Of a stretch of 64,000 nucleotides of DNA, positions 2,315 to 54,863 are shown in pieces; the first letter of the stretch is position 1, and the number at the start of each line of letters is the position of its first letter. Made by a program: the position numbers and the translations under genes. The stretch is from assembly GCA_965237415.1 (NCBI GenBank), contig CBDEFM010000002.1, positions 3,648,001 to 3,712,000 of the forward strand, given 5' to 3'. This stretch comes from Alphaproteobacteria bacterium. GTDB taxonomy: Bacteria > Pseudomonadota > Alphaproteobacteria > UBA828. The notes beneath the pieces were generated by a model that did no database searches, was not told where the DNA came from, and saw nothing but the letters and a program-made list of their open reading frames with translations.

Positions 2315-3178
2315 GTGCATCCCTTCTACCTGCCGGGGCACGAAGGGCTCATCAACCGCCTGCAAGAGCTGCGGCAACACCCTGCCGTCGAGGAACTTCC
2401 CGAACGAGAACGCAACCAGATCGACTCCATCCTCGAACAAAACACGCGCCAGACCACAGCCATCTCGCACGTCGACAACCATCTCGCCGAGGTCCAACGC
2501 TGCCGCAACCACCTCGCGGAGCTCCAGGATCTGGCGTACACGTACAAACTCAAGCTTGAGAAGGTGCACTCCTACGACGAATGGCACGACACCGCAGAGC
2601 GCCTCCTCGCGGCCGGCAAGGCCATCGCCGTTGACCGGAAAACCTACGGCCCCTGCCTCAACCACACTCCCCATGCGTGGAAGGACGTCCATGCCAGCAT
2701 CCGCGAGCTCGCCAGCGCCCTCGGCCACGACATCACCTCCCTCCATCACCGGCAGCCCGAGCTTTACCTCGAGCCCATCACCCGGCCCGTACCCGACTCA
2801 CAGCAGGCCAAGGACGCCGACGCGAGCTACCGCCGCCTCCGCGACGAATGGCACAAGCACGTCGCCCTCGCAGAATCGACGCAAACCCACCCCTACCACC
2901 TCAAGGGCCACGCCGAGCTCATCGACGCCACGCGCGAACTCCGCAACCTGCCCGATCTCGCCACAAACGCTCAGCAGGCCCTCGATACCCTGCTCCACGA
3001 CTACACCCCACTCCAACAGGTCCGACAGCACATCCACGCCTACCTCGACAAAGCTGAGCACGCCTTGGAGGAGTACCAGCGCTTCAAGGACACCGTGCAA
3101 GAGCTCAGTCCACTGGACGTCCGCCTTGAGGACATCGAGGGCTATGGCGCGAATGGAAGGACCGCGCCCTGCGCCTGA
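2315..3178 (+). pseudogene. Helical fragment resembling the C-terminal tail of a conjugative relaxase
   Basis: Repeated HPxxLxGH helical units similar in style to the 57.4-59.4 kb relaxase tail; no catalytic domain seen. Confidence 0.45.
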
Positions 3179-3863
3179 CCGACACCACATGCCGGCCGGT
3201 GCGCGAGCGCAGATGGTCGATGAGGTCGTCCAGCGACGGTGCCTCCGATCCCGGCCCCAGGTCAGCGACGCAGTCGACCCATGGCCAGTCGGCCAGCGCC
3301 TCCGCCGTCGCCCCGCCGGACAGCAGAGGATGCCCGCGGTGCGCGACGGTGCCCATGGTAAGTGCTGGCAGCTCTTCGCGCCGCAGAGAGTCCGGCAGGC
3401 ATGCCCCGGCGTCGAGACCGCCGCAGTGCAGGTCGCTCTCCCCGGCCTCCAGCAGGCGCAGCCCTTCGCCCCGGCCGGCGCTGCGCAGCCGCAGCTCGAT
3501 CCCGGGAAATCCCTCCCGGAAGCGCCCGACGGCGTCCGCCACGACGCCTTGCATCCAGAGCGCATCGGCGGTCGCCCGGATGTGCCCGTTGCGGCCCGCG
3601 AGCGCGCCGCCGATCCGGTCCTCCGCCTCCTCGTAGGCGCGCAGCAGGCGCCGGGCCTCTTCGGCAGCCGCGGCGCCGAGCGCCGTCAGCCGCACGCCGG
3701 TCGGCAGGCGTTCGAACAGCGGCGCGCCGAACCGGCTCTCAAGCGCGGCGATCGCGCGGGTCAGCGCCGGCTGGCCGATCGCCAGACGGTCGGCCGCGGC
3801 CACGACTTTCCCCGCCTCCACCACCGCCAGGAACTTCTCGATCTCGCTCCGACGCCTGAACAT
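3105..3863 (-). pseudogene. LysR-family transcriptional regulator, C-terminally truncated
   Basis: AAADRLAIGQPALTRAIAALE...LFER...LT LysR HTH; the substrate domain breaks off at ~3180. Confidence 0.8.
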
Positions 3864-12003: not shown

Positions 12004-12293
12004 AAAGCCAGGCAGCAGTTCGGCTCTCAAACGCGGGTCGTTGCTGCGCGTGTAAGGCAGGCGCCGCCGCCGATTTGTACGCCGGACATGCCGGTCAGGA
12101 AACGAACGCGGTGCCGTTCACGTCCGCGTGCGCTGGTTCTTGATTCTTGATGATTCCCAATAAATTCCCAACTGTCGATGCCAGGCGGGAGCCTGCAGTG
12201 TTGTTAAGCGATGGAGTGGACGCCCCCTTCCGGCGGCATGGCAATGTGCCATGTTGGCGGTGTCGTCAACGCCAAGAGAGGAAAGGGGCATCC

Positions 12294-13322
12294 ATGGAAC
12301 GGGTTAGCATGATCGGGATCGATCTGGCAAAGAACAGCTTTCAAGCTCACGGTGCGCGGGCGGACGGTTCGGTTGCGTTCCGCAGGAAGCTGAGTCGGGC
12401 GAAGATTTTGGATTTTATGGCCTCACAGCCGCGCTGCACGGTAGTGATGGAGGCGTGTGCCAGCGCCCATTACTGGGGCCGGGAGATCGGCGGTCTAGGC
12501 CATGCGGTGCGACTGATCCCTCCGGTTTATGTCAAAGCCTACGTCAAGCGGCAAAAGAACGACGCGGCCGACGCCGAGGCGATATGCGAGGCGGCATCGC
12601 GGCCGACCATGAGTTTCGTGGCGGTGAAGACGAAGGAGCAGCAGGCGCGGGGCATGCTGTTCCGGACACGCGATCTTCTGGTGCGCCAGCGCACACAGAC
12701 GATCAACGCGCTGCGCGGCCATCTGGCGGAGTTCGGCGTTGTTGCGCCCAAGGGGCCGGTCCATATCGATCGCCTGGCGTCGGCGCTTGAGGATCAGGTC
12801 TCGGACCTGCCGGAGGCGGTCTGCGCGCTGGGTGGCCTTCTGTTTGAGCAGATTGAAGGTCTCAATGGGAAGATCGGAGACTTGGAGCGGGAGACCCATA
12901 CGGCTGCGCGGCAGGATGAGGACGTGCAACGGCTTATGACCGTGCCAGGGATCGGGCCGATCACCGCGATGGCGATCCAAGCCTTCGCGCCGCCGATGGA
13001 GAGCTTCCAGCGGGGTCGCGACTTCTCTGCCTGGCTGGGCCTCGTACCGCGCCAGCACACGACCGGCGGCAAGCCGAGATTGGGCAAGATATCGAAGATG
13101 GGTCAGCGCGATCTTCGGCGGCTGCTGATCACGGGCGCCATGGCGGTTGTGCGCTGGTCGGTCCGGCGTGGCAGGACAGACGATCCGTGGCTCGCCAGGA
13201 TGCTGGCGTGCAAGCCGCGGATGCTTGTCGCAGTGGCGCTGGCCAACCGGATGGCGCGTATCGTCTGGGCGCTGATGACGAAGAAGGAGATCTACCGGGC
13301 TCCCGCGCTCGAAGCCGCCTGA
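12294..13322 (+). CDS. IS110 family transposase
   Basis: IGIDLAK, MEAC, KNDAADA (DEDD), GLVPRQHTTGGK motifs. Confidence 0.95.
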   Translation: MERVSMIGIDLAKNSFQAHGARADGSVAFRRKLSRAKILDFMASQPRCTVVMEACASAHYWGREIGGLGHAVRLIPPVYVKAYVKRQKNDAADAEAICEAASRPTMSFVAVKTKEQQARGMLFRTRDLLVRQRTQTINALRGHLAEFGVVAPKGPVHIDRLASALEDQVSDLPEAVCALGGLLFEQIEGLNGKIGDLERETHTAARQDEDVQRLMTVPGIGPITAMAIQAFAPPMESFQRGRDFSAWLGLVPRQHTTGGKPRLGKISKMGQRDLRRLLITGAMAVVRWSVRRGRTDDPWLARMLACKPRMLVAVALANRMARIVWALMTKKEIYRAPALEAA

Positions 13323-13575
13323 GAGGGTGGCAAAGCGCGGGTAGCCGTCGGGGATGCGGGCAGGTCGGAGGACAGGCAAGGGCAAACGGTCGACGAGACG
13401 GGATCGGGAAACCCAGCTTTGCGCGGAGAGCTTTCGAGCTCGCATAAGCGATTTGGACCCGGTCCGCGCATCTCCATGAGGGCCCGCGGCGTGTGACGTG
13501 CCGCATCGAGAGGCCGGACACACGACAGAACCTGACCGAATGTGCCGAGCCGACCAAAGAAACCGCTTGCGTCTA
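13323..13575 (+). ncRNA. Putative bridge/seek RNA of IS1111 copy 1
   Basis: Contains TAAGCG (13445-13450) and GCGCG (13421-13425) matching the target flanks, and ACACACG (13518-13524) matching the element right end; boundaries approximate. Confidence 0.7.
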
Positions 13576-13898
13576 CGGGGGCGTCCACACACGCGCCTTG
13601 TTGACCCCCCGCAATGCAGCAAGATCAATGAATTACTGCGCCGATCGGCGCCGAACCTACGCGCCGAGCAACACGCGGGTGCCGTCTCGGGTCCGGTGCG
13701 TCTTCCATAGTCTGCACTGCTGCTATGTAGACTCTGCGATGTCCGGCACAATATAGCACACTAACCAGCATTCAATACACATGGGCATAGTATCCTTCCC
13801 TCTCCATAACGCAGCTTGGCTCAACCAGAAAGCATATGGTCCCCGCAAATGTCCCATCCACCCAGAGACCGTCCCTTTGCATAGTATGGCATCGCAAT

Positions 13899-22611: not shown

Positions 22612-22984
22612 ATTGATCCTTGACTGCCCGGCGCGGTCCGTATTGTCGGGACGGCTGGTCTCGGGCGCATATGCCAGCCGCGGGAGCGGCCGGAACGGGT
22701 GGAGTTGCTTGTTTCCGGGTCTGAAGCGACGCAAGCTCGTTGCGTCGCGGGCCCGGAAAATGATTTACACGGGCTACATGTGCTCTCGGGCCGGCAATGT
22801 CAATGCCCGCCACCGCCTACGCCAACTTTACGGAGCCGGCACAGGTCCGGAACATGGAACTCGGCCATCTGGTCGACGCCTCGGCCGTGGCGGCCGGATT
22901 GAGGAACAATTCCGCTCCCCGATACGGGAAGGACGTAAGCGTTCGGCGGCCGGGGGATCGAAGGGACGAGGGCGGCATTTGCAC

Positions 22985-23025
22985 TGGTAACGATTCCGGC
23001 CATGCGCTACCGTCGAGCGCATGGC
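22985..23025 (+). promoter_or_regulatory. Candidate leaderless promoter with a stem-loop sequestering the transposase ATG
   Basis: TGGTAA-17 bp-TACCGT-7 bp-ATG; 10-bp stem 22999-23008/23016-23025; identical spacing in the diverged copy at ~52805-52850. Confidence 0.55.
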
Positions 23026-25411
23026 GATTCGCGAGGATTTTGGCGCAGCTCTGACGCTGGTTGATGGCGGCGATGGGACTTGGTCGCCTGTCGAGGCGGC
23101 GCCGGCGCACGCGCGGCGCGATTGGCAGCCCCTATACGAGCAAGAACGTGCGCGGGCGGAGGCGGCCGAAGCGCGCTGTGAGGAGCTGCGCCGGGCGGAG
23201 TTGGCCTCTCGTTCCCGGGCCGGTTCGCTGAAGTCGCAGCTCGACGCCAGCCGGAACAAGCTGAAGGCGGCCGCGGAGGAGATCAGGGAAGTCCGCCGCA
23301 CGGCGAAGAACGCCCTTGCCTTGCAGGCCGAAGTGACGCGCCTGGAGAAGCTCCTTTCGGAAGCCGGCGTCGAATCGAGCAAGCGCAGCACGATCATGTC
23401 CCTGCGCAAGGAGGTCGCTCGGCTGCGTGCGGCCGTGCCGGCGTCGGAGGCCTGTCGGCCGCGCGGGGCTCGGAGGCGATCGCGGAACCCCGAGGAGACG
23501 ATCGCGTCGCTGCGCGAGGAGAACGCCCGGCTGAAGAAGGAGGTGCGTGCGGCGAAGGACCTGGAGGGCAGGGTCAAGTTCCTGGACCGCGAGATCGACA
23601 ATCACCGCTCCTGGCTGCGGGGGTCGCACGACCACATTCAGCGGCTCGAGGCCCGGCATCGCGACGAGATCGATTGGTTGAAGAAGGACATGGCCTGGAT
23701 GCGCGCGGCGTTCGTTGGGGCAGCGGACGATCGCAACCGCACGATCGCGTCGCTGCGCAAGCAACTCGACCGGCGGCGCGCGGCGGCCGTGCGGTTGGTG
23801 GAGGCCCGGGAGCGCACGATCGCCTGGCTGCGCGAGCGGAACGAGCGGCTGCGGGCGGCGACCGTGCGGGCCACGGACATGATCGTGTCGCTGCGCGAGA
23901 AGATCGCTGGGCTGCGCGCCCAGGTGCGGGCTTTGGAGGTCGAGAAGAAGGCGCTGGTGTCCCGCGTCGAGACGCTGGAAGCCCAGCTTGCGAAGCTCCG
24001 CGCGAGCCGGGCCGTGCTGTCGAAGTCGCTGTTCGGGAGAAAGAGCGAGCGGCAGAAGAAACCGCGCTCCGGGCGCAAGCGCGGTCAGCAGCGTGGCGCT
24101 CCCGGCCATGGCCGCACGCAGCGGCCCGGGCTCGAGGAGCGCACTGAAGAGCATAACCCGCCCGAGGATGCGTGCGTCTGTTCCTGTTGCGGGAAGCCCT
24201 ATGCTGCCAACGGCGAGCGTTCCACGACCATCGTCGAGATCGAGGTCAAGGCCCACATGCGCAGAATCGTCCGGCCCCGCTGGCGCCGGAGTTGCGACTG
24301 CCCATCGTCGCCGCTGGAAGTGACGGCACCCCCGGTGCCGCGCCTGTTCGACAACACGCCCTACGGCATCAGCGTGTGGGTGTGCATCTTCTTCGAGCGC
24401 TTTGCCTGCTACCGCCCGCTCAAGCGGGTCGCAGCATGGCTGGCGAATATGGGGCTGCCGATCTCGCCGGGGACGCTGGCCGACAGTGTGAAGCGCTCCG
24501 TGCCGCTGTTCGAGCCCGTGGCCGAGGCGATCCTCGCGCACCAGAACAAGGCGGCGGTGCGCCATGCAGACGAGACCACATGGCGTGTGCAGGCGCTTCG
24601 CGAGAAGGGCCGCTCCAGCCGAGCCTGGCTCTGGACCTCGGTCAGCGCCGACGCGGTCTACTTCCACATCGATCCCTCGCGCTCAGCCGAGGTCGCGAAG
24701 GCCCTGTTCGGCGGCGTCATCGGTGTCGTGTTCCTGGTCTGCGACCGCCTCTCGACCTACAAGAGGCTGGCCCGAGAGCTCGACGGCAAGGTGATCCTCC
24801 AGTGGTGTTGGGCGCACCAGCGCAGATCGTTTATCGACTGTGCCGCCGGCCACGTGCGGCTCACCCGCTGGTGCCAGGGATGGATCGAGCGGATCGCAGC
24901 GATCTACCGGCTGAACGATGCGCGGCTGGAGCATTACGACCCCGCTCTCGAACGCCAGACACCAGAGTTCGACGCGGCGCAGGGCGAGCTGAACAAGGCG
25001 GTCGACGACCTGTTCGCGGACACCGAAGCGGAACTGGCCGGCCTGTCGGCCAAGGCGCTCAGGGCCAAGCCGCTGCGCTCGCTGCTCAACCACCGCGAGG
25101 GGCTGAGCGTCTTCGTCGATCACCCGCAGGTGCCGCCCGATAACAACCGCGCCGAGCTTGCCCTCAGGAGTGCGGTCATAGGACGACAGCTCTCGTTCGG
25201 TTCCGACAGCGAGACCGGCGCCAGGTTCACGGCCATGATGTACTCGGTGGCGGGCACGCTCGCCATGAACGGCATCGATGTTCGGCGCTGGCTCGAGGAA
25301 TGGCTGTCAGCGTGCGCGAAAAATGGCGGAAAACCGCCGGACGACCTGTCGCCCTGGCTGCCATGGTCGATGAGCGAGGGCCGCAGGCGTGCTCTCGCGG
25401 CGCCGGGATGA
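23021..25411 (+). CDS. IS66 family transposase with long coiled-coil N-terminus
   Basis: LFGRKSER, CSCCG zinc finger, ADET, CD...Y, CWAHQRR, DNNRAELALR. Confidence 0.93.
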   Translation: MAIREDFGAALTLVDGGDGTWSPVEAAPAHARRDWQPLYEQERARAEAAEARCEELRRAELASRSRAGSLKSQLDASRNKLKAAAEEIREVRRTAKNALALQAEVTRLEKLLSEAGVESSKRSTIMSLRKEVARLRAAVPASEACRPRGARRRSRNPEETIASLREENARLKKEVRAAKDLEGRVKFLDREIDNHRSWLRGSHDHIQRLEARHRDEIDWLKKDMAWMRAAFVGAADDRNRTIASLRKQLDRRRAAAVRLVEARERTIAWLRERNERLRAATVRATDMIVSLREKIAGLRAQVRALEVEKKALVSRVETLEAQLAKLRASRAVLSKSLFGRKSERQKKPRSGRKRGQQRGAPGHGRTQRPGLEERTEEHNPPEDACVCSCCGKPYAANGERSTTIVEIEVKAHMRRIVRPRWRRSCDCPSSPLEVTAPPVPRLFDNTPYGISVWVCIFFERFACYRPLKRVAAWLANMGLPISPGTLADSVKRSVPLFEPVAEAILAHQNKAAVRHADETTWRVQALREKGRSSRAWLWTSVSADAVYFHIDPSRSAEVAKALFGGVIGVVFLVCDRLSTYKRLARELDGKVILQWCWAHQRRSFIDCAAGHVRLTRWCQGWIERIAAIYRLNDARLEHYDPALERQTPEFDAAQGELNKAVDDLFADTEAELAGLSAKALRAKPLRSLLNHREGLSVFVDHPQVPPDNNRAELALRSAVIGRQLSFGSDSETGARFTAMMYSVAGTLAMNGIDVRRWLEEWLSACAKNGGKPPDDLSPWLPWSMSEGRRRALAAPG

Positions 25412-26289
25412 CCGGCGAGATCGAGTGCCGCTATTACGGGCGCGAGTTCACCGCCGAAGAGATGGCGCTTCTGCGCGTCCTGGTGGCCGGTCCCGCGCGG
25501 CTCACCCGCCATGCCCTGTCGAAGGAGTTTTGCCGGCACATCGGCTGGTTCAGGCCCGACGGCGGGCTCAAGGACATGATGGCCAGGGTCACCATGCTGG
25601 CCATGCACAGGGACGGCCTGATCACCCTGCCGCCGCCCAGGTGGCAGCAGGGCCAGCAAAAGCCGATTGTCTTCGGGCCTGACACCGAAACGCCGCTGTT
25701 CCCGGCGCCGACAACCCTCGACGAAGTCCGCCCGCTCGAACTGCGCACCGTCGTGCGCGGCACCCGCGAGGGCAAGCTGTGGAACGAGTTCATCGCCCGC
25801 TACCACTATCTCGGCTACAAGACCCTGGTCGGCGCCCAGATGCGCTACGCCGTCCACGACCGAAACGGCTGGCCGCTCGCCATGCTCGGCTTCAGCACCG
25901 CGGCCTGGAAGCTCGCGCCGCGCGACAGCTTCATCGGATGGACACAACAGAAGCGCGAGAAGAACCTCCCCCTCGTGGTCGACAACCCGAGGTTCCTGAT
26001 CCTGCCCTGGATCAAGATCCCCAATCTCGGCTCGCACATTCTCGCCATCGTCCGCCGCCGCCTGCCCGAGGACTGGACCGAGCGCTACAACACCACCCCC
26101 GTGCTCATCGAGACCTTCGTCCAGACCCCGCGCTTCACCGGCGCTGTCTACAAGGCCTCCGGCTGGATCCGTGTCGGAACCACCCAGGGACGCGGCCGCT
26201 ACGACAGGTACAGCAAACGCGACCAGCCGAAGAAGGACATCTGGCTCCGGCCTCTCCGGAGGGATTGGAAGCGAACCCTCAATCGGTAA
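25408..26289 (+). CDS. DUF4338 / DruA-like protein
   Basis: YHYLG, RDSFIGW, NPRFLILPW, IETFV, GAVYKASGW motifs; ATGA overlap with the transposase stop. Confidence 0.85.
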   Translation: MTGEIECRYYGREFTAEEMALLRVLVAGPARLTRHALSKEFCRHIGWFRPDGGLKDMMARVTMLAMHRDGLITLPPPRWQQGQQKPIVFGPDTETPLFPAPTTLDEVRPLELRTVVRGTREGKLWNEFIARYHYLGYKTLVGAQMRYAVHDRNGWPLAMLGFSTAAWKLAPRDSFIGWTQQKREKNLPLVVDNPRFLILPWIKIPNLGSHILAIVRRRLPEDWTERYNTTPVLIETFVQTPRFTGAVYKASGWIRVGTTQGRGRYDRYSKRDQPKKDIWLRPLRRDWKRTLNR

Positions 26290-26417
26290 AATCCCCCGGC
26301 CGCCGAACGCTTACGGAAGGACACCTCGAACGTAAGCGTTCGGCGGCCGGGGGATCGAAGGGACGAGGGCGGCATTTGCACTGGTAACGATTCCGGCCAT
26401 GCGCTACCGTCGAGCGC

Positions 26418-28808
26418 ATGGCGATTCGCGAGGATTTTGGCGCAGCTCTGACGCTGGTTGATGGCGGCGATGGGACTTGGTCGCCTGTCGAGGCGGCGCC
26501 GGCGCACGCGCGGCGCGATTGGCAGCCCCTATACGAGCAAGAACGTGCGCGGGCGGAGGCGGCCGAAGCGCGCTGTGAGGAGCTGCGCCGGGCGGAGTTG
26601 GCCTCTCGTTCCCGGGCCGGTTCGCTGAAGTCGCAGCTCGACGCCAGCCGGAACAAGCTGAAGGCGGCCGCGGAGGAGATCAGGGAAGTCCGCCGCACGG
26701 CGAAGAACGCCCTTGCCTTGCAGGCCGAAGTGACGCGCCTGGAGAAGCTCCTTTCGGAAGCCGGCGTCGAATCGAGCAAGCGCAGCACGATCATGTCCCT
26801 GCGCAAGGAGGTCGCTCGGCTGCGTGCGGCCGTGCCGGCGTCGGAGGCCTGTCGGCCGCGCGGGGCTCGGAGGCGATCGCGGAACCCCGAGGAGACGATC
26901 GCGTCGCTGCGCGAGGAGAACGCCCGGCTGAAGAAGGAGGTGCGTGCGGCGAAGGACCTGGAGGGCAGGGTCAAGTTCCTGGACCGCGAGATCGACAATC
27001 ACCGCTCCTGGCTGCGGGGGTCGCACGACCACATTCAGCGGCTCGAGGCCCGGCATCGCGACGAGATCGATTGGTTGAAGAAGGACATGGCCTGGATGCG
27101 CGCGGCGTTCGTTGGGGCAGCGGACGATCGCAACCGCACGATCGCGTCGCTGCGCAAGCAACTCGACCGGCGGCGCGCGGCGGCCGTGCGGTTGGTGGAG
27201 GCCCGGGAGCGCACGATCGCCTGGCTGCGCGAGCGGAACGAGCGGCTGCGGGCGGCGACCGTGCGGGCCACGGACATGATCGTGTCGCTGCGCGAGAAGA
27301 TCGCTGGGCTGCGCGCCCAGGTGCGGGCTTTGGAGGTCGAGAAGAAGGCGCTGGTGTCCCGCGTCGAGACGCTGGAAGCCCAGCTTGCGAAGCTCCGCGC
27401 GAGCCGGGCCGTGCTGTCGAAGTCGCTGTTCGGGAGAAAGAGCGAGCGGCAGAAGAAACCGCGCTCCGGGCGCAAGCGCGGTCAGCAGCGTGGCGCTCCC
27501 GGCCATGGCCGCACGCAGCGGCCCGGGCTCGAGGAGCGCACTGAAGAGCATAACCCGCCCGAGGATGCGTGCGTCTGTTCCTGTTGCGGGAAGCCCTATG
27601 CTGCCAACGGCGAGCGTTCCACGACCATCGTCGAGATCGAGGTCAAGGCCCACATGCGCAGAATCGTCCGGCCCCGCTGGCGCCGGAGTTGCGACTGCCC
27701 ATCGTCGCCGCTGGAAGTGACGGCACCCCCGGTGCCGCGCCTGTTCGACAACACGCCCTACGGCATCAGCGTGTGGGTGTGCATCTTCTTCGAGCGCTTT
27801 GCCTGCTACCGCCCGCTCAAGCGGGTCGCAGCATGGCTGGCGAATATGGGGCTGCCGATCTCGCCGGGGACGCTGGCCGACAGTGTGAAGCGCTCCGTGC
27901 CGCTGTTCGAGCCCGTGGCCGAGGCGATCCTCGCGCACCAGAACAAGGCGGCGGTGCGCCATGCAGACGAGACCACATGGCGTGTGCAGGCGCTTCGCGA
28001 GAAGGGCCGCTCCAGCCGAGCCTGGCTCTGGACCTCGGTCAGCGCCGACGCGGTCTACTTCCACATCGATCCCTCGCGCTCAGCCGAGGTCGCGAAGGCC
28101 CTGTTCGGCGGCGTCATCGGTGTCGTGTTCCTGGTCTGCGACCGCCTCTCGACCTACAAGAGGCTGGCCCGAGAGCTCGACGGCAAGGTGATCCTCCAGT
28201 GGTGTTGGGCGCACCAGCGCAGATCGTTTATCGACTGTGCCGCCGGCCACGTGCGGCTCACCCGCTGGTGCCAGGGATGGATCGAGCGGATCGCAGCGAT
28301 CTACCGGCTGAACGATGCGCGGCTGGAGCATTACGACCCCGCTCTCGAACGCCAGACACCAGAGTTCGACGCGGCGCAGGGCGAGCTGAACAAGGCGGTC
28401 GACGACCTGTTCGCGGACACCGAAGCGGAACTGGCCGGCCTGTCGGCCAAGGCGCTCAGGGCCAAGCCGCTGCGCTCGCTGCTCAACCACCGCGAGGGGC
28501 TGAGCGTCTTCGTCGATCACCCGCAGGTGCCGCCCGATAACAACCGCGCCGAGCTTGCCCTCAGGAGTGCGGTCATAGGACGACAGCTCTCGTTCGGTTC
28601 CGACAGCGAGACCGGCGCCAGGTTCACGGCCATGATGTACTCGGTGGCGGGCACGCTCGCCATGAACGGCATCGATGTTCGGCGCTGGCTCGAGGAATGG
28701 CTGTCAGCGTGCGCGAAAAATGGCGGAAAACCGCCGGACGACCTGTCGCCCTGGCTGCCATGGTCGATGAGCGAGGGCCGCAGGCGTGCTCTCGCGGCGC
28801 CGGGATGA
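26418..28808 (+). CDS. IS66 family transposase (copy 2)
   Basis: Same translation as 23021-25411. Confidence 0.93.
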   Translation: MAIREDFGAALTLVDGGDGTWSPVEAAPAHARRDWQPLYEQERARAEAAEARCEELRRAELASRSRAGSLKSQLDASRNKLKAAAEEIREVRRTAKNALALQAEVTRLEKLLSEAGVESSKRSTIMSLRKEVARLRAAVPASEACRPRGARRRSRNPEETIASLREENARLKKEVRAAKDLEGRVKFLDREIDNHRSWLRGSHDHIQRLEARHRDEIDWLKKDMAWMRAAFVGAADDRNRTIASLRKQLDRRRAAAVRLVEARERTIAWLRERNERLRAATVRATDMIVSLREKIAGLRAQVRALEVEKKALVSRVETLEAQLAKLRASRAVLSKSLFGRKSERQKKPRSGRKRGQQRGAPGHGRTQRPGLEERTEEHNPPEDACVCSCCGKPYAANGERSTTIVEIEVKAHMRRIVRPRWRRSCDCPSSPLEVTAPPVPRLFDNTPYGISVWVCIFFERFACYRPLKRVAAWLANMGLPISPGTLADSVKRSVPLFEPVAEAILAHQNKAAVRHADETTWRVQALREKGRSSRAWLWTSVSADAVYFHIDPSRSAEVAKALFGGVIGVVFLVCDRLSTYKRLARELDGKVILQWCWAHQRRSFIDCAAGHVRLTRWCQGWIERIAAIYRLNDARLEHYDPALERQTPEFDAAQGELNKAVDDLFADTEAELAGLSAKALRAKPLRSLLNHREGLSVFVDHPQVPPDNNRAELALRSAVIGRQLSFGSDSETGARFTAMMYSVAGTLAMNGIDVRRWLEEWLSACAKNGGKPPDDLSPWLPWSMSEGRRRALAAPG

Positions 28809-29686
28809 CCGGCGAGATCGAGTGCCGCTATTACGGGCGCGAGTTCACCGCCGAAGAGATGGCGCTTCTGCGCGTCCTGGTGGCCGGTCCCGCGCGGCTC
28901 ACCCGCCATGCCCTGTCGAAGGAGTTTTGCCGGCACATCGGCTGGTTCAGGCCCGACGGCGGGCTCAAGGACATGATGGCCAGGGTCACCATGCTGGCCA
29001 TGCACAGGGACGGCCTGATCACCCTGCCGCCGCCCAGGTGGCAGCAGGGCCAGCAAAAGCCGATTGTCTTCGGGCCTGACACCGAAACGCCGCTGTTCCC
29101 GGCGCCGACAACCCTCGACGAAGTCCGCCCGCTCGAACTGCGCACCGTCGTGCGCGGCACCCGCGAGGGCAAGCTGTGGAACGAGTTCATCGCCCGCTAC
29201 CACTATCTCGGCTACAAGACCCTGGTCGGCGCCCAGATGCGCTACGCCGTCCACGACCGAAACGGCTGGCCGCTCGCCATGCTCGGCTTCAGCACCGCGG
29301 CCTGGAAGCTCGCGCCGCGCGACAGCTTCATCGGATGGACACAACAGAAGCGCGAGAAGAACCTCCCCCTCGTGGTCGACAACCCGAGGTTCCTGATCCT
29401 GCCCTGGATCAAGATCCCCAATCTCGGCTCGCACATTCTCGCCATCGTCCGCCGCCGCCTGCCCGAGGACTGGACCGAGCGCTACAACACCACCCCCGTG
29501 CTCATCGAGACCTTCGTCCAGACCCCGCGCTTCACCGGCGCTGTCTACAAGGCCTCCGGCTGGATCCGTGTCGGAACCACCCAGGGACGCGGCCGCTACG
29601 ACAGGTACAGCAAACGCGACCAGCCGAAGAAGGACATCTGGCTCCGGCCTCTCCGGAGGGATTGGAAGCGAACCCTCAATCGGTAA
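28805..29686 (+). CDS. DUF4338 / DruA-like protein (copy 2)
   Basis: Same translation as 25408-26289. Confidence 0.85.
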   Translation: MTGEIECRYYGREFTAEEMALLRVLVAGPARLTRHALSKEFCRHIGWFRPDGGLKDMMARVTMLAMHRDGLITLPPPRWQQGQQKPIVFGPDTETPLFPAPTTLDEVRPLELRTVVRGTREGKLWNEFIARYHYLGYKTLVGAQMRYAVHDRNGWPLAMLGFSTAAWKLAPRDSFIGWTQQKREKNLPLVVDNPRFLILPWIKIPNLGSHILAIVRRRLPEDWTERYNTTPVLIETFVQTPRFTGAVYKASGWIRVGTTQGRGRYDRYSKRDQPKKDIWLRPLRRDWKRTLNR

Positions 29687-29814
29687 AATCCCCCGGCCGC
29701 CGAACGCTTACGGAAGGACACCTCGAACGTAAGCGTTCGGCGGCCGGGGGATCGAAGGGACGAGGGCGGCATTTGCACTGGTAACGATTCCGGCCATGCG
29801 CTACCGTCGAGCGC

Positions 29815-32205
29815 ATGGCGATTCGCGAGGATTTTGGCGCAGCTCTGACGCTGGTTGATGGCGGCGATGGGACTTGGTCGCCTGTCGAGGCGGCGCCGGC
29901 GCACGCGCGGCGCGATTGGCAGCCCCTATACGAGCAAGAACGTGCGCGGGCGGAGGCGGCCGAAGCGCGCTGTGAGGAGCTGCGCCGGGCGGAGTTGGCC
30001 TCTCGTTCCCGGGCCGGTTCGCTGAAGTCGCAGCTCGACGCCAGCCGGAACAAGCTGAAGGCGGCCGCGGAGGAGATCAGGGAAGTCCGCCGCACGGCGA
30101 AGAACGCCCTTGCCTTGCAGGCCGAAGTGACGCGCCTGGAGAAGCTCCTTTCGGAAGCCGGCGTCGAATCGAGCAAGCGCAGCACGATCATGTCCCTGCG
30201 CAAGGAGGTCGCTCGGCTGCGTGCGGCCGTGCCGGCGTCGGAGGCCTGTCGGCCGCGCGGGGCTCGGAGGCGATCGCGGAACCCCGAGGAGACGATCGCG
30301 TCGCTGCGCGAGGAGAACGCCCGGCTGAAGAAGGAGGTGCGTGCGGCGAAGGACCTGGAGGGCAGGGTCAAGTTCCTGGACCGCGAGATCGACAATCACC
30401 GCTCCTGGCTGCGGGGGTCGCACGACCACATTCAGCGGCTCGAGGCCCGGCATCGCGACGAGATCGATTGGTTGAAGAAGGACATGGCCTGGATGCGCGC
30501 GGCGTTCGTTGGGGCAGCGGACGATCGCAACCGCACGATCGCGTCGCTGCGCAAGCAACTCGACCGGCGGCGCGCGGCGGCCGTGCGGTTGGTGGAGGCC
30601 CGGGAGCGCACGATCGCCTGGCTGCGCGAGCGGAACGAGCGGCTGCGGGCGGCGACCGTGCGGGCCACGGACATGATCGTGTCGCTGCGCGAGAAGATCG
30701 CTGGGCTGCGCGCCCAGGTGCGGGCTTTGGAGGTCGAGAAGAAGGCGCTGGTGTCCCGCGTCGAGACGCTGGAAGCCCAGCTTGCGAAGCTCCGCGCGAG
30801 CCGGGCCGTGCTGTCGAAGTCGCTGTTCGGGAGAAAGAGCGAGCGGCAGAAGAAACCGCGCTCCGGGCGCAAGCGCGGTCAGCAGCGTGGCGCTCCCGGC
30901 CATGGCCGCACGCAGCGGCCCGGGCTCGAGGAGCGCACTGAAGAGCATAACCCGCCCGAGGATGCGTGCGTCTGTTCCTGTTGCGGGAAGCCCTATGCTG
31001 CCAACGGCGAGCGTTCCACGACCATCGTCGAGATCGAGGTCAAGGCCCACATGCGCAGAATCGTCCGGCCCCGCTGGCGCCGGAGTTGCGACTGCCCATC
31101 GTCGCCGCTGGAAGTGACGGCACCCCCGGTGCCGCGCCTGTTCGACAACACGCCCTACGGCATCAGCGTGTGGGTGTGCATCTTCTTCGAGCGCTTTGCC
31201 TGCTACCGCCCGCTCAAGCGGGTCGCAGCATGGCTGGCGAATATGGGGCTGCCGATCTCGCCGGGGACGCTGGCCGACAGTGTGAAGCGCTCCGTGCCGC
31301 TGTTCGAGCCCGTGGCCGAGGCGATCCTCGCGCACCAGAACAAGGCGGCGGTGCGCCATGCAGACGAGACCACATGGCGTGTGCAGGCGCTTCGCGAGAA
31401 GGGCCGCTCCAGCCGAGCCTGGCTCTGGACCTCGGTCAGCGCCGACGCGGTCTACTTCCACATCGATCCCTCGCGCTCAGCCGAGGTCGCGAAGGCCCTG
31501 TTCGGCGGCGTCATCGGTGTCGTGTTCCTGGTCTGCGACCGCCTCTCGACCTACAAGAGGCTGGCCCGAGAGCTCGACGGCAAGGTGATCCTCCAGTGGT
31601 GTTGGGCGCACCAGCGCAGATCGTTTATCGACTGTGCCGCCGGCCACGTGCGGCTCACCCGCTGGTGCCAGGGATGGATCGAGCGGATCGCAGCGATCTA
31701 CCGGCTGAACGATGCGCGGCTGGAGCATTACGACCCCGCTCTCGAACGCCAGACACCAGAGTTCGACGCGGCGCAGGGCGAGCTGAACAAGGCGGTCGAC
31801 GACCTGTTCGCGGACACCGAAGCGGAACTGGCCGGCCTGTCGGCCAAGGCGCTCAGGGCCAAGCCGCTGCGCTCGCTGCTCAACCACCGCGAGGGGCTGA
31901 GCGTCTTCGTCGATCACCCGCAGGTGCCGCCCGATAACAACCGCGCCGAGCTTGCCCTCAGGAGTGCGGTCATAGGACGACAGCTCTCGTTCGGTTCCGA
32001 CAGCGAGACCGGCGCCAGGTTCACGGCCATGATGTACTCGGTGGCGGGCACGCTCGCCATGAACGGCATCGATGTTCGGCGCTGGCTCGAGGAATGGCTG
32101 TCAGCGTGCGCGAAAAATGGCGGAAAACCGCCGGACGACCTGTCGCCCTGGCTGCCATGGTCGATGAGCGAGGGCCGCAGGCGTGCTCTCGCGGCGCCGG
32201 GATGA
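29815..32205 (+). CDS. IS66 family transposase (copy 3)
   Basis: Same translation as 23021-25411. Confidence 0.93.
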   Translation: MAIREDFGAALTLVDGGDGTWSPVEAAPAHARRDWQPLYEQERARAEAAEARCEELRRAELASRSRAGSLKSQLDASRNKLKAAAEEIREVRRTAKNALALQAEVTRLEKLLSEAGVESSKRSTIMSLRKEVARLRAAVPASEACRPRGARRRSRNPEETIASLREENARLKKEVRAAKDLEGRVKFLDREIDNHRSWLRGSHDHIQRLEARHRDEIDWLKKDMAWMRAAFVGAADDRNRTIASLRKQLDRRRAAAVRLVEARERTIAWLRERNERLRAATVRATDMIVSLREKIAGLRAQVRALEVEKKALVSRVETLEAQLAKLRASRAVLSKSLFGRKSERQKKPRSGRKRGQQRGAPGHGRTQRPGLEERTEEHNPPEDACVCSCCGKPYAANGERSTTIVEIEVKAHMRRIVRPRWRRSCDCPSSPLEVTAPPVPRLFDNTPYGISVWVCIFFERFACYRPLKRVAAWLANMGLPISPGTLADSVKRSVPLFEPVAEAILAHQNKAAVRHADETTWRVQALREKGRSSRAWLWTSVSADAVYFHIDPSRSAEVAKALFGGVIGVVFLVCDRLSTYKRLARELDGKVILQWCWAHQRRSFIDCAAGHVRLTRWCQGWIERIAAIYRLNDARLEHYDPALERQTPEFDAAQGELNKAVDDLFADTEAELAGLSAKALRAKPLRSLLNHREGLSVFVDHPQVPPDNNRAELALRSAVIGRQLSFGSDSETGARFTAMMYSVAGTLAMNGIDVRRWLEEWLSACAKNGGKPPDDLSPWLPWSMSEGRRRALAAPG

Positions 32206-33083
32206 CCGGCGAGATCGAGTGCCGCTATTACGGGCGCGAGTTCACCGCCGAAGAGATGGCGCTTCTGCGCGTCCTGGTGGCCGGTCCCGCGCGGCTCACC
32301 CGCCATGCCCTGTCGAAGGAGTTTTGCCGGCACATCGGCTGGTTCAGGCCCGACGGCGGGCTCAAGGACATGATGGCCAGGGTCACCATGCTGGCCATGC
32401 ACAGGGACGGCCTGATCACCCTGCCGCCGCCCAGGTGGCAGCAGGGCCAGCAAAAGCCGATTGTCTTCGGGCCTGACACCGAAACGCCGCTGTTCCCGGC
32501 GCCGACAACCCTCGACGAAGTCCGCCCGCTCGAACTGCGCACCGTCGTGCGCGGCACCCGCGAGGGCAAGCTGTGGAACGAGTTCATCGCCCGCTACCAC
32601 TATCTCGGCTACAAGACCCTGGTCGGCGCCCAGATGCGCTACGCCGTCCACGACCGAAACGGCTGGCCGCTCGCCATGCTCGGCTTCAGCACCGCGGCCT
32701 GGAAGCTCGCGCCGCGCGACAGCTTCATCGGATGGACACAACAGAAGCGCGAGAAGAACCTCCCCCTCGTGGTCGACAACCCGAGGTTCCTGATCCTGCC
32801 CTGGATCAAGATCCCCAATCTCGGCTCGCACATTCTCGCCATCGTCCGCCGCCGCCTGCCCGAGGACTGGACCGAGCGCTACAACACCACCCCCGTGCTC
32901 ATCGAGACCTTCGTCCAGACCCCGCGCTTCACCGGCGCTGTCTACAAGGCCTCCGGCTGGATCCGTGTCGGAACCACCCAGGGACGCGGCCGCTACGACA
33001 GGTACAGCAAACGCGACCAGCCGAAGAAGGACATCTGGCTCCGGCCTCTCCGGAGGGATTGGAAGCGAACCCTCAATCGGTAA
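32202..33083 (+). CDS. DUF4338 / DruA-like protein (copy 3)
   Basis: Same translation as 25408-26289. Confidence 0.85.
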   Translation: MTGEIECRYYGREFTAEEMALLRVLVAGPARLTRHALSKEFCRHIGWFRPDGGLKDMMARVTMLAMHRDGLITLPPPRWQQGQQKPIVFGPDTETPLFPAPTTLDEVRPLELRTVVRGTREGKLWNEFIARYHYLGYKTLVGAQMRYAVHDRNGWPLAMLGFSTAAWKLAPRDSFIGWTQQKREKNLPLVVDNPRFLILPWIKIPNLGSHILAIVRRRLPEDWTERYNTTPVLIETFVQTPRFTGAVYKASGWIRVGTTQGRGRYDRYSKRDQPKKDIWLRPLRRDWKRTLNR

Positions 33084-33248
33084 AATCCCCCGGCCGCCGA
33101 ACGCTTACCCTCGAACCGCTGCCGCCATCTTGATTTCCCCAGCTCATGGCCGGCATACATGTGCCGACTCTGTGTTGACAGTTCGTTTTGGCATGCCAGA
33201 ATGGGAATCGAAAACTCCGAAAACTTCAATGTTTCCGGGTGGTTGAGC

Positions 33249-52269: not shown

Positions 52270-52444
52270 TTACCCAAGCTCGGCGAGCTTCCCACCGAAG
52301 TCCCGTGTCTCGTCCAACTATATCTTCGGTCCCGTCGCAACGATAGGCGCCACTTCCGCCGATCCGGTGGCCAAGTGACCAACCACGCCTCGCCGGCGCA
52401 CTTACGCCACCGCTTCCCGGCTTCACCAGGGGCGTCCACCCCAT
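52270..52444 (-). mobile_element. Orphan IS1111-type left end, preceded by GTAAGCG
   Basis: ATGGGGTGGACGCCCC identical to the left end of the 52929-54303 element; inner boundary uncertain. Confidence 0.6.
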
Positions 52445-52945
52445 CGCTTACGAACGTTCACGGTAAGTGTTCGTTCAGGCCGTGGAATCAGCGCGGGCGT
52501 TTCAATCCGCCCCGGCGGATTTTAACGATTGAGGGTGCGTTTCCAGTCCCGTCGCAGGGGCCGGAGCCAGACATCCTTTTTCGGCTTGTCGTACTGCCTG
52601 TCCCGGTCGTAGCGCCCGCGCCCTTGGGTGGCGCCGACATGGATCCAGCCCGATGCCCTGTAGACCGCGCCGGTATATCGCGGGGTCTCTACGAAAGTCT
52701 CGATGAGCACCGGCGTGGTGTTGTAGCGCTCGGTCCAGTCCTCGGGCAGGCGCCGGCGGATGCCCTCGACCAGCGTCAGGTCGGTGCCAAAATCCTCGTC
52801 CAGAACCGCCATGCGCACGACGATAGCGCATGGCAAATTGCGTTACCAGCAGAAAGACAGCCCCTTGTGGGGCTTCGCCTCAACGTGGGAGATGCGCTTG
52901 ACGGCACCCATTCCACGGCCTGAACGAACGTGTGTGGACGCCCCC

Positions 52946-53197
52946 GTTGATGCAAGCAGTTTTTGGTCGGCTCGGTGCATGCGGTCAGGTGCTGTCGTGT
53001 GTCCGGCCTCTCTATGCGGCAGATGACACGCCGCGGGCCCGTATGGAGATGCGCGGATTGGGTCCAAATCGCTTACGCGAGCTTGAAAGCTCTCCGTTCG
53101 GATGCTGGTTTTCCCGACCCGGTCTCGTTGACCTTTGCCCTTACCTGTCCTCCGTCCTGCCCACATCCCCGACGGCTTCCCGCACTTCGCCGTTCTC
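52946..53197 (-). ncRNA. Putative bridge/seek RNA of IS1111 copy 2
   Basis: GTAAGCG (53070-53076) and CGAACG (53095-53100) on the minus strand match the target GTAAGCG/TTCG. Confidence 0.72.
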
Positions 53198-54220
53198 TCA
53201 GGCGGCGGCGGGAGCCCGGTAGCTCTCCTTCGTCGTCAGTAGCGCCCAGACGATGCGCGCCATCCTGTTGGCCAGCACCACCGCGACGAGCATCCTCGGC
53301 TTGCGCGCCAGCATCCCGGCCAGCCAGGGGTCCGTCGTTACGCCGCGCCGAACCGCCCAGCGGACGACAGTCATCGCGCCCGTGATCAAGAGCCGTCTCA
53401 AATCGCGCTGGCCCATCTTCGATATCTTGCCCAGCTTCGGCTTGCCGCCCGTCGTGTGCTGGCGCGGCACGAGGCCGAGCCAAGCGGAGAAGTCGCGACC
53501 GCGCCGGAAACTCTCCATCGGCGGTGCGAAGGCCTGGATCGCCATCGCGCTGATCGGCCCGATCCCCGGCACGCTCATCAGGCGCCTTGCCTCCTCATCC
53601 TGCCGTGCACTCACGTGGATCTCCCTCTCCAGGCCCGCAATCTTCGCATCGAGGCCGGCGATTTGCTCAAGCAGAAGGCCGCCCAGCTCGCGGACCGCTT
53701 CCGGCAACCCCGAAGCCGGTCCCTCAAGCGCCGAGGCCAGCCGGCCGACATGAGCCGGCGCCTGCGGGGCAACGATACCGAACTCCGCCAAATGGCCGCG
53801 CAGCGCATTAATCGTCTGGGTGCGCTGGCGCACCAGAAGATCGCGCGTCCGGAACAGCATGCCCCGAGCCTGCTGTTCCTCCGTCTTCACAGCTACAAAG
53901 CGCATGGTCGGCCGCGACGACGCCTCGCAGATCGCCTCCGCGTCCGACGCGTCGTTCTTTTGCCGCTTCACATACGCTTTGACGTAGATCGGCGGGACCA
54001 GTCGCACCGCATGACCGAGACTGCCGATCTCCCGGCCCCAATGGTGCGCGCCACCGCACGCCTCCATCGCCACCGTGCAGCGTGGCTGCGCAGCCACAAA
54101 GTCCAACAACTTCGCCCGGCTCACCTTCTTGCGGAACGCTACCGACCCGTCCGCCCGCGCACCGTGCAGCTGAAAGCTGTTCTTCGCCAGATCGATCCCG
54201 ATCATGTTAACCTGTCCCAT
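53198..54220 (-). CDS. IS110 family transposase
   Basis: IGIDLAK, MEAC, KNDASDA, QHTTGGK. Confidence 0.95.
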   Translation of the reverse strand: MGQVNMIGIDLAKNSFQLHGARADGSVAFRKKVSRAKLLDFVAAQPRCTVAMEACGGAHHWGREIGSLGHAVRLVPPIYVKAYVKRQKNDASDAEAICEASSRPTMRFVAVKTEEQQARGMLFRTRDLLVRQRTQTINALRGHLAEFGIVAPQAPAHVGRLASALEGPASGLPEAVRELGGLLLEQIAGLDAKIAGLEREIHVSARQDEEARRLMSVPGIGPISAMAIQAFAPPMESFRRGRDFSAWLGLVPRQHTTGGKPKLGKISKMGQRDLRRLLITGAMTVVRWAVRRGVTTDPWLAGMLARKPRMLVAVVLANRMARIVWALLTTKESYRAPAAA

Positions 54221-54863
54221 GGACGCCCCCTTCCTCGCTTGGTGTTTAACAACACCGCCAACCTGGCACATCGCGATGCCGTCGGGAGGGGCGTCCACCC
54301 CATCGCTTACCCGTGACGCGATGGCGGAATCGCGGCTCGGTCGGGCGGCGGGACAAGTGCGGACGCGCGGGGCCGTATGTTGGATTCAATCCGGTTACGT
54401 TATGAAGACGGGATACGGGCGGGGGTAAACAGCAGAATTTTGAGAGGACTGATTAATTTTTGAATTACAATCGATTAGAATTGCAACATGCGTAGGAACC
54501 TTCAATATTGCGGCACAAGATTGGCAAACACTGAGAATCGAAGCGACGCGCGCGTCTGACGGCCCTTGGCAACGGCGTCGCCCGGAGGTGCCGGGGCGCG
54601 GAGACGAGAGCCAACGAGGGGCCTTCGTCGGCCGCCGTGCTCGTGAGCGGGGAGACGGCATAGCACGAGCAAGCGGGGTCGCGACTGTCGGCTGACTGAA
54701 CAGGTGTGAGCGGCGCGGCGAGGTCCTCCGGCCCAGCCCCCTGCGGCGAGGCCAGCGGTGCAAGTGGTCTTATCCGATCGATCTCGGACGGCCGGAGGAG
54801 CGCGCATTCGACGGAGTTTGAGAGGCGGCGGCAGTCATGAAGCCGGCGCCCTCAAGAGATAAA

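Follow-up and report, generated by a model that had tools for sequence, protein, structure and literature searches.

How an IS1111-family insertion sequence came to lie inside the terminal repeat of an IS66-type transposon is the question raised by one locus in a 64,000-nt stretch of alphaproteobacterial DNA (hereafter the window; Table 1). The first-pass annotation had answered it with an RNA-guided element that parasitises the termini of IS66 transposons. In our analysis the best explanation, which we hold to be very probable, is that an RNA-guided IS1111 element carrying guides for IS66 repeat tips inserted in one such tip, with targeting over about 12 bases.

Table 1. Features of the locus and of related elements, in window positions
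Feature	Position	Strand	Remarks
IS1111 copy 1	12211..13593	+	84% DNA identity to copy 2
Three tandem IS66-DruA units	22935..33108	.	six terminal repeats, starting at 22935, 26314, 26332, 29711, 29729 and 33108
Solo IS1111 left-end remnant	52429..52451	-	16 nt (52429-52444) plus GTAAGCG (52445-52451)
Partner terminal repeat, unoccupied	52463..52488	+	tip variant GTAAGTG; GTAAGTGTTCGTTCAGG, uninterrupted
Body of the 473-bp (466 + 7) IS66-DruA deletion derivative	52463..52928	.	alignment to array unit; tblastn with DruA-like protein
Inner part of split repeat (TTCGTTCAGGCCGTGGAAT...)	52903..52928	-	adjoins IS1111 right end
IS1111-family insertion sequence, copy 2	52929..54303	-	1,375 bp, intact; ends by motif and alignment to 90+ relatives
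Right subterminal inverted repeat, copy 2	52934..52944	-	GGGGCGTCCAC; 11-bp perfect match to the left one
Predicted seekRNA / bridge-RNA region, copy 2	52984..53133	-	3' non-coding region; alignments, guide-flank covariation, RNAalifold
Donor loop, GGACACACGAC	52995-53005	-	copy 2 RNA region; same as right end
Donor loop, complement of left end ATGGAG	53041-53049	-	copy 2 RNA region
Target loop B guide GTAAGCG	53070-53076	-	copy 2 RNA region
Target loop hairpin between guides	53079-53094	-	copy 2 RNA region
Target loop T guide CCGAACG	53095-53101	-	copy 2 RNA region
Transposase/recombinase gene, copy 2	53198..54220	-	340 aa, intact; Pfam matches
Left subterminal inverted repeat, copy 2	54288..54298	-	GTGGACGCCCC
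Outer 7 bases GTAAGCG of split IS66-type terminal repeat	54304..54310	-	tip

An IS1111 element in a split IS66-type repeat

Copy 2 is an intact IS1111-family element (within the IS110 group of ISfinder), and at least nine copies in genome G049 share 97% DNA identity with it. Its transposase matched DEDD_Tnp_IS110 (PF01548, 1e-15, profile positions 1-153 of 155) and, in the C-terminal domain, Transposase_20 (PF02371, 4.5e-22), and GLVPRQHTTG at residue 249 represents the GL-P----TG motif. The ends of the element read ATGG...CACACG when the shared CG core is assigned to the right end, and assigning the core to the left gives terminal extensions of CGATGGG (7) and ACA (3); non-coding sequence amounts to 269 nt (52929-53197) downstream of the gene versus 83 nt upstream. 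According to the accessible part of PMC11187229, IS1111 elements have transposases of 330-350 aa with a GL-P----S(t)G motif, subterminal repeats of 11-13 bp and terminal extensions (left 7 bp, right 3 bp), and copy 2 was assigned to the family because its domains, length of 340 aa, motif, 11-bp repeats and downstream non-coding region fit that description.

Read on the minus strand, the insertion site consists of GTAAGCG, the element itself (ATGGGGTGGACGCCCC ... GGGGGCGTCCACACACG) and TTCGTTCAGGCCGTGGAAT. The earlier claim that copy 2 splits an inverted repeat at GTAAGCG^TTCGTTCAGGCCGTGGAAT proved exact to the base, and joining the two halves restores GTAAGCGTTCGTTCAGGCCGTGGAAT, which is identical to the partner at 52463 at all but one of the first 26 bases (25/26, with a C-to-T change in the tip) and at 28 of the 32 compared. 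This opposite repeat is uninterrupted, as had been annotated; its GTAAGTG differs from GTAAGCG by a plain CpG-to-TpG change. The occupied-type target sequence is GTAAGCGTTCGTTC. IS66 terminal repeats, as described in the accessible parts of two reports, are 20-30 bp long and start with GTAAGCG (PMC11946415), that of ISPsk01 being GTAAGCGTCCGGCG... (PMC12888890), and the host repeat likewise starts with GTAAGCG. The 473-bp host element retains only the 3' end of a DruA-like gene (ORF 52502-52831, minus strand) and approximately 90 nt of the left end, which align to a unit of the tandem array at 84% identity (3117-3365) and 80% identity (50-134), respectively; since only a DruA 3' fragment is kept, we regard it as a non-autonomous derivative. 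The 8-bp target duplication is absent at this element (flanks CGTTCACG versus CCGTGACG), which has probably been rearranged. In the proposed sequence of events, copy 2, presumably as a circle, would have entered the left repeat of the 473-bp derivative by recombination at its CG core, so that the element now separates seven tip bases from the remaining repeat, and the split repeat would no longer be usable by the IS66 transposase.

A third IS1111 left end had been noted at 52444, also following GTAAGCG. The left end itself was confirmed (52428-52451 and 54287-54310 are identical at 24/24 nt), and beyond the 16-nt remnant the sequence is unrelated to the element. An IS66 repeat at 52445-52451 was not established, since only the seven guide-required bases are kept and left-half-only insertions are common in the lineage; the bare 7-mer occurs 284 times in the 4.75-Mb genome, so that these bases alone cannot prove a former repeat. 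At the orthologous locus, G006, a genome of the same genus, has the remnant, a spacer of 11 nt and the empty repeat in common with the window up to position 52622; the sequences then diverge, and all that G006 retains of an IS1111 is a fragment of 87% identity 2 kb beyond; because of this divergence the pre-insertion state of the copy 2 locus was not recovered.

Guides in the predicted seekRNA region

Within the non-coding region downstream of the gene, the predicted RNA carries its target guides in the order CCGAACG, hairpin, GTAAGCG. The 5' guide is the complement of top-strand CGTTCGG and the 3' guide is identical to the top strand; as the two overlap at the CG core, they give the combined reading GTAAG-CG-TTCGG, which corresponds to IS66-family terminal inverted repeats over their outermost dozen bases. 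A complement of the top strand placed 5' of a match to the bottom strand, the two overlapping in the target, is the arrangement of IS1111 seekRNAs in the accessible text of PMC11187229, and the guide order of copy 2 is of this type. The donor loop reads the joined ends of the element, CACA-CG-ATGG.

Covariation between guides and flanks was assessed in 98 copies with both ends, of which 79 were usable, representing 74 distinct events and 49 guide classes. Matches of at least 6 nt between the 3' guide and the element's own left flank were present in 39/49 classes compared to 20/2306 mismatched pairings, and the 5' guide matched its own flank in 31/49 classes compared to 37/2306 mismatched pairings, while the core dinucleotide of the left flank equalled that of the right end in 68/74 events (CG/CG 56, TG/TG 12). 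RNAalifold analysis of 33 sequences yielded 31 pairs, of which 10 show compensatory changes, and for a pair of the hairpin between the guides both sides were changed in 16 of the 33. An Rfam scan of 52300-54500 (E<=1) returned no family match. Contigs of two RNA libraries span 52983-53270, which comprises the RNA region and the 3' end of the gene, and one spans the left junction (54167-54450). Neither a circle junction nor an empty-site joint appeared among the contigs of the four public runs, and none across 52928/54304 was among those listed; as contigs, they are not informative on transcription, on the ends of the RNA, on circles or on empty sites. The family features and the covariation in the guide classes thus bear out the earlier view of copy 2 as an RNA-guided IS1111, and they make it highly likely that its recombinase is directed by a seekRNA from its own 3' non-coding region.

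Occupied and empty sites, and what they suggest

If the guides read IS66 tips, relatives with the same guides would be expected in such tips. The first-pass annotation had generalised that these elements lie in IS66-like repeats, and this held in part. Six of the 11 insertions with a GTAAGCG guide lie in demonstrable IS66-family ends (full, truncated or MITEs), with neighbours comprising DruA and an IS66 transposase (L026), an IS66 transposase (L019), a 61-aa transposase tail (L020) or a partner repeat at 203 nt (L025) or 104 nt (L114). The other five are without a demonstrable IS66 element: placement in an IS66 end is only probable for L102, L018 and L104 have no more than the 12-13-nt tip in common with IS66 ends, L159 is unassigned, and L130b is a hybrid element. 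In a 97%-identical sister lineage the guide is changed by one base to GTAACCG and the left flanks mirror the change; here the generalisation failed, as among the 10 insertions for which both flanks are known only 2 are in IS66-like ends, while the other 8 are without an IS66-like repeat, partner or gene and several sites match the left half only. Copy 1 also lies outside, with guides CTTTGCGCG and ATAAGCG and a site, GTTAAGCG^CGCCTTG, that is not an IS66 end. Pfam detected no IS66 domain in the sequence flanking L016, L018, L020 and L025, and tblastn against 1.5 kb and 5 kb of sequence beside the G049 copies gave no IS66 match save one fragment on the outer side of L129; searches for spare sites gave only 1-mismatch matches, at control level, for GTAAGCGTCCGGT in G002 and no exact copy of GTAACCGTTCGG in G049. 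The 5' guide variants track the IS66 repeat subtypes TTCGG, TCCGG and TTCCGA. Judged from these guide-site comparisons, RNA-guided targeting of IS66 tips is supported and not exclusive, close relatives using partial or left-half-only sites as well.

Empty sites are found in the same window. As previously described, GTAAGCGTTCG, a full match to the copy 2 guides, opens each of the six repeats in the tandem array, and all of these repeats are empty; here the contiguous match is 12 bases long (GTAAGCGTTCGG) and exceeds that at the occupied site by one base. The 11-mer GTAAGCGTTCG occurs seven times in the genome, in the six array repeats and at C1:647213, and all seven are unoccupied IS66-DruA ends. 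The restriction of the 11-mer to such ends favours tip targeting; that the genome has just one full insertion and one 16-nt remnant beside seven empty guide-perfect sites speaks against it. The array units carry DDE_Tnp_IS66 (PF03050, 8.7e-56) and a DruA-like gene, show the 8-bp repeats GGAAGGAC and CCTCGAAC, and are 100% identical, from which we take the copies to be recent.

A neutral reading, which we consider reasonably likely, is compatible with RNA-guided insertion into IS66 tips, being a gloss on it: the tip would be no more than a conserved sequence, present in many copies on dispensable DNA that moves horizontally, and may serve as a harmless and mobile landing site; IS1111 would gain such sites and transport, any effect on IS66 being incidental. 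Other lineages of the clade target other repeats, namely REP-like AAAATTG^ACCCCC (L022-L029), the right end of other IS1111 elements (L041, L083, L117, L124) and the non-coding region of another IS1111 (L014). Passive copying is illustrated by another IS1111 in this genome. Its three identical copies each lie within a larger repeat, at 137-143 nt from the repeat end, and because they share at least 1,423 nt of flanking sequence we take them to have spread passively with their flanks. No evidence contrary to this neutral reading was found.

The first-pass annotation had proposed a hyperparasite that would immobilise these transposons or hitch-hike on them, with GTAAGTG and GTGAACG as possible escape alleles. 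In the full antagonistic reading, IS1111 would spread at the expense of IS66 by disabling its ends, the tip variants GTAAGTG, GTAACCG, GTAAAGG and GTGAACG would be selected escape alleles and guide variants would be counter-moves. The insertion does part the 7-nt tip from the remaining repeat; in all three mini elements with a recognisable partner, the empty partner differs from the occupied repeat in the tip (GTAAGTG in the window, GTAACCA in L025, GTAACCG in L114); variation among the IS66-DruA lineages of this genome falls mostly at tip positions 5-7, with GTTCGG conserved directly after them; and a GTAACCG guide exists, one of its sites (L016) being a GTAACCG repeat. IS66-tip guides also fall in two separate branches of the transposase tree, a quick version in which row L114 is a long-branch artefact, probably from a wrong ORF, to be ignored. 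However, survivorship alone would be enough to leave empty partners unlike the occupied repeat, the chance of a tip mismatch in all three elements together (with 1, 2 and 5 mismatches per repeat) is estimated at ~0.1, and positions 5-7 may be a less constrained spacer of the repeat. Seven guide-perfect ends are left empty, six of them in the recent array copies, which argues against strong current pressure, and in G013 approximately 99 IS66 transposase matches stand against five copy 2 matches among those listed, some of them partial. We therefore regard antagonism as unlikely, and an arms race between guide and tip, in which tip variants protect, guide changes chase and the targeting arose more than once, as equally doubtful; if it were true, RNA-guided insertion sequences would be natural sequence-specific brakes on other transposons.

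That the 12-nt likeness is coincidental, or that copy 2 arrived with the mini element, is very improbable: the heavy rearrangement of the locus, the missing 8-bp duplication, the remnant and empty repeat held in common with G006 before the loci diverge and the half-matching insertions of relatives would all allow it, but the junction is base-exact, genuine IS66 ends hold five independent relatives, the seven genomic 11-mers are without exception IS66-DruA ends, the 5' guides follow repeat subtypes, and passive arrival merely shifts the insertion event to an ancestor.

Comparison with known systems

IS4321 and IS5075, members of the IS1111 family, insert in the 38-bp terminal repeats of Tn21-family transposons. 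The likeness drawn to them in the first-pass annotation is apt, as copy 2 likewise occupies one position in one orientation within the terminal repeat of another transposon and splits it. The host differs, being IS66 (a DDE insertion sequence with GTAAGCG tips) rather than Tn3/Tn21, and copy 2, unlike these elements, cuts 5-7 bases from the repeat tip. The copy 2 protein has thousands of matches on enterobacterial plasmids, all below 60% protein identity; because its target is the IS66-type GTAAGCG^TTCG..., we consider copy 2 similar to IS4321/IS5075 in action but not a member of that group. Within the partial literature coverage, no paper was found on IS1111-type insertion in IS66 repeats, although the supplementary target logos of PMC11187229 may list one, or on DUF4338 combined with IS66.

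Copy 2 resembles the IS1111 elements with a 3' seekRNA (ISEc11, ISKpn4, ISPst6 and ISPa11; Siddiquee et al. 2024, PMC11187229, accessible part) in its DEDD recombinase of about 340 aa, motif, subterminal repeats, 7- and 3-nt extensions, downstream non-coding region, overlapping guides and retargeting by guide changes. It differs from them, compared by description, in that it targets an IS66 repeat tip, whereas theirs are linear sites, attC sites or REP sequences. As far as the available descriptions of IS621 and the IS110 bridge RNA go, copy 2 shares with them two loops (for the target and for the joined ends) and a shared core dinucleotide, whereas its RNA lies downstream of the gene, its guide order is reversed, subterminal repeats are present and its core is CG (TG in other lineages).

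Collectively, the mechanism is known and copy 2 is a clear new example of it, which adds a natural target class, the conserved GTAAGCG tip of IS66, to the sites of IS1111 seekRNAs, with covariation over dozens of lineages. For annotation, it accounts for IS110-family genes that abut IS66 ends and IS66-derived MITEs. For recombinase engineers, it offers a 97%-identical pair that differs in one guide base and the matching site base, and the many left-half-only insertions of the sister lineage resemble the 'half-match' insertion of IS621 and echo its in vitro 'half-match' off-targets, as these are described in the accessible part of 10.64898/2026.08.31.748434.

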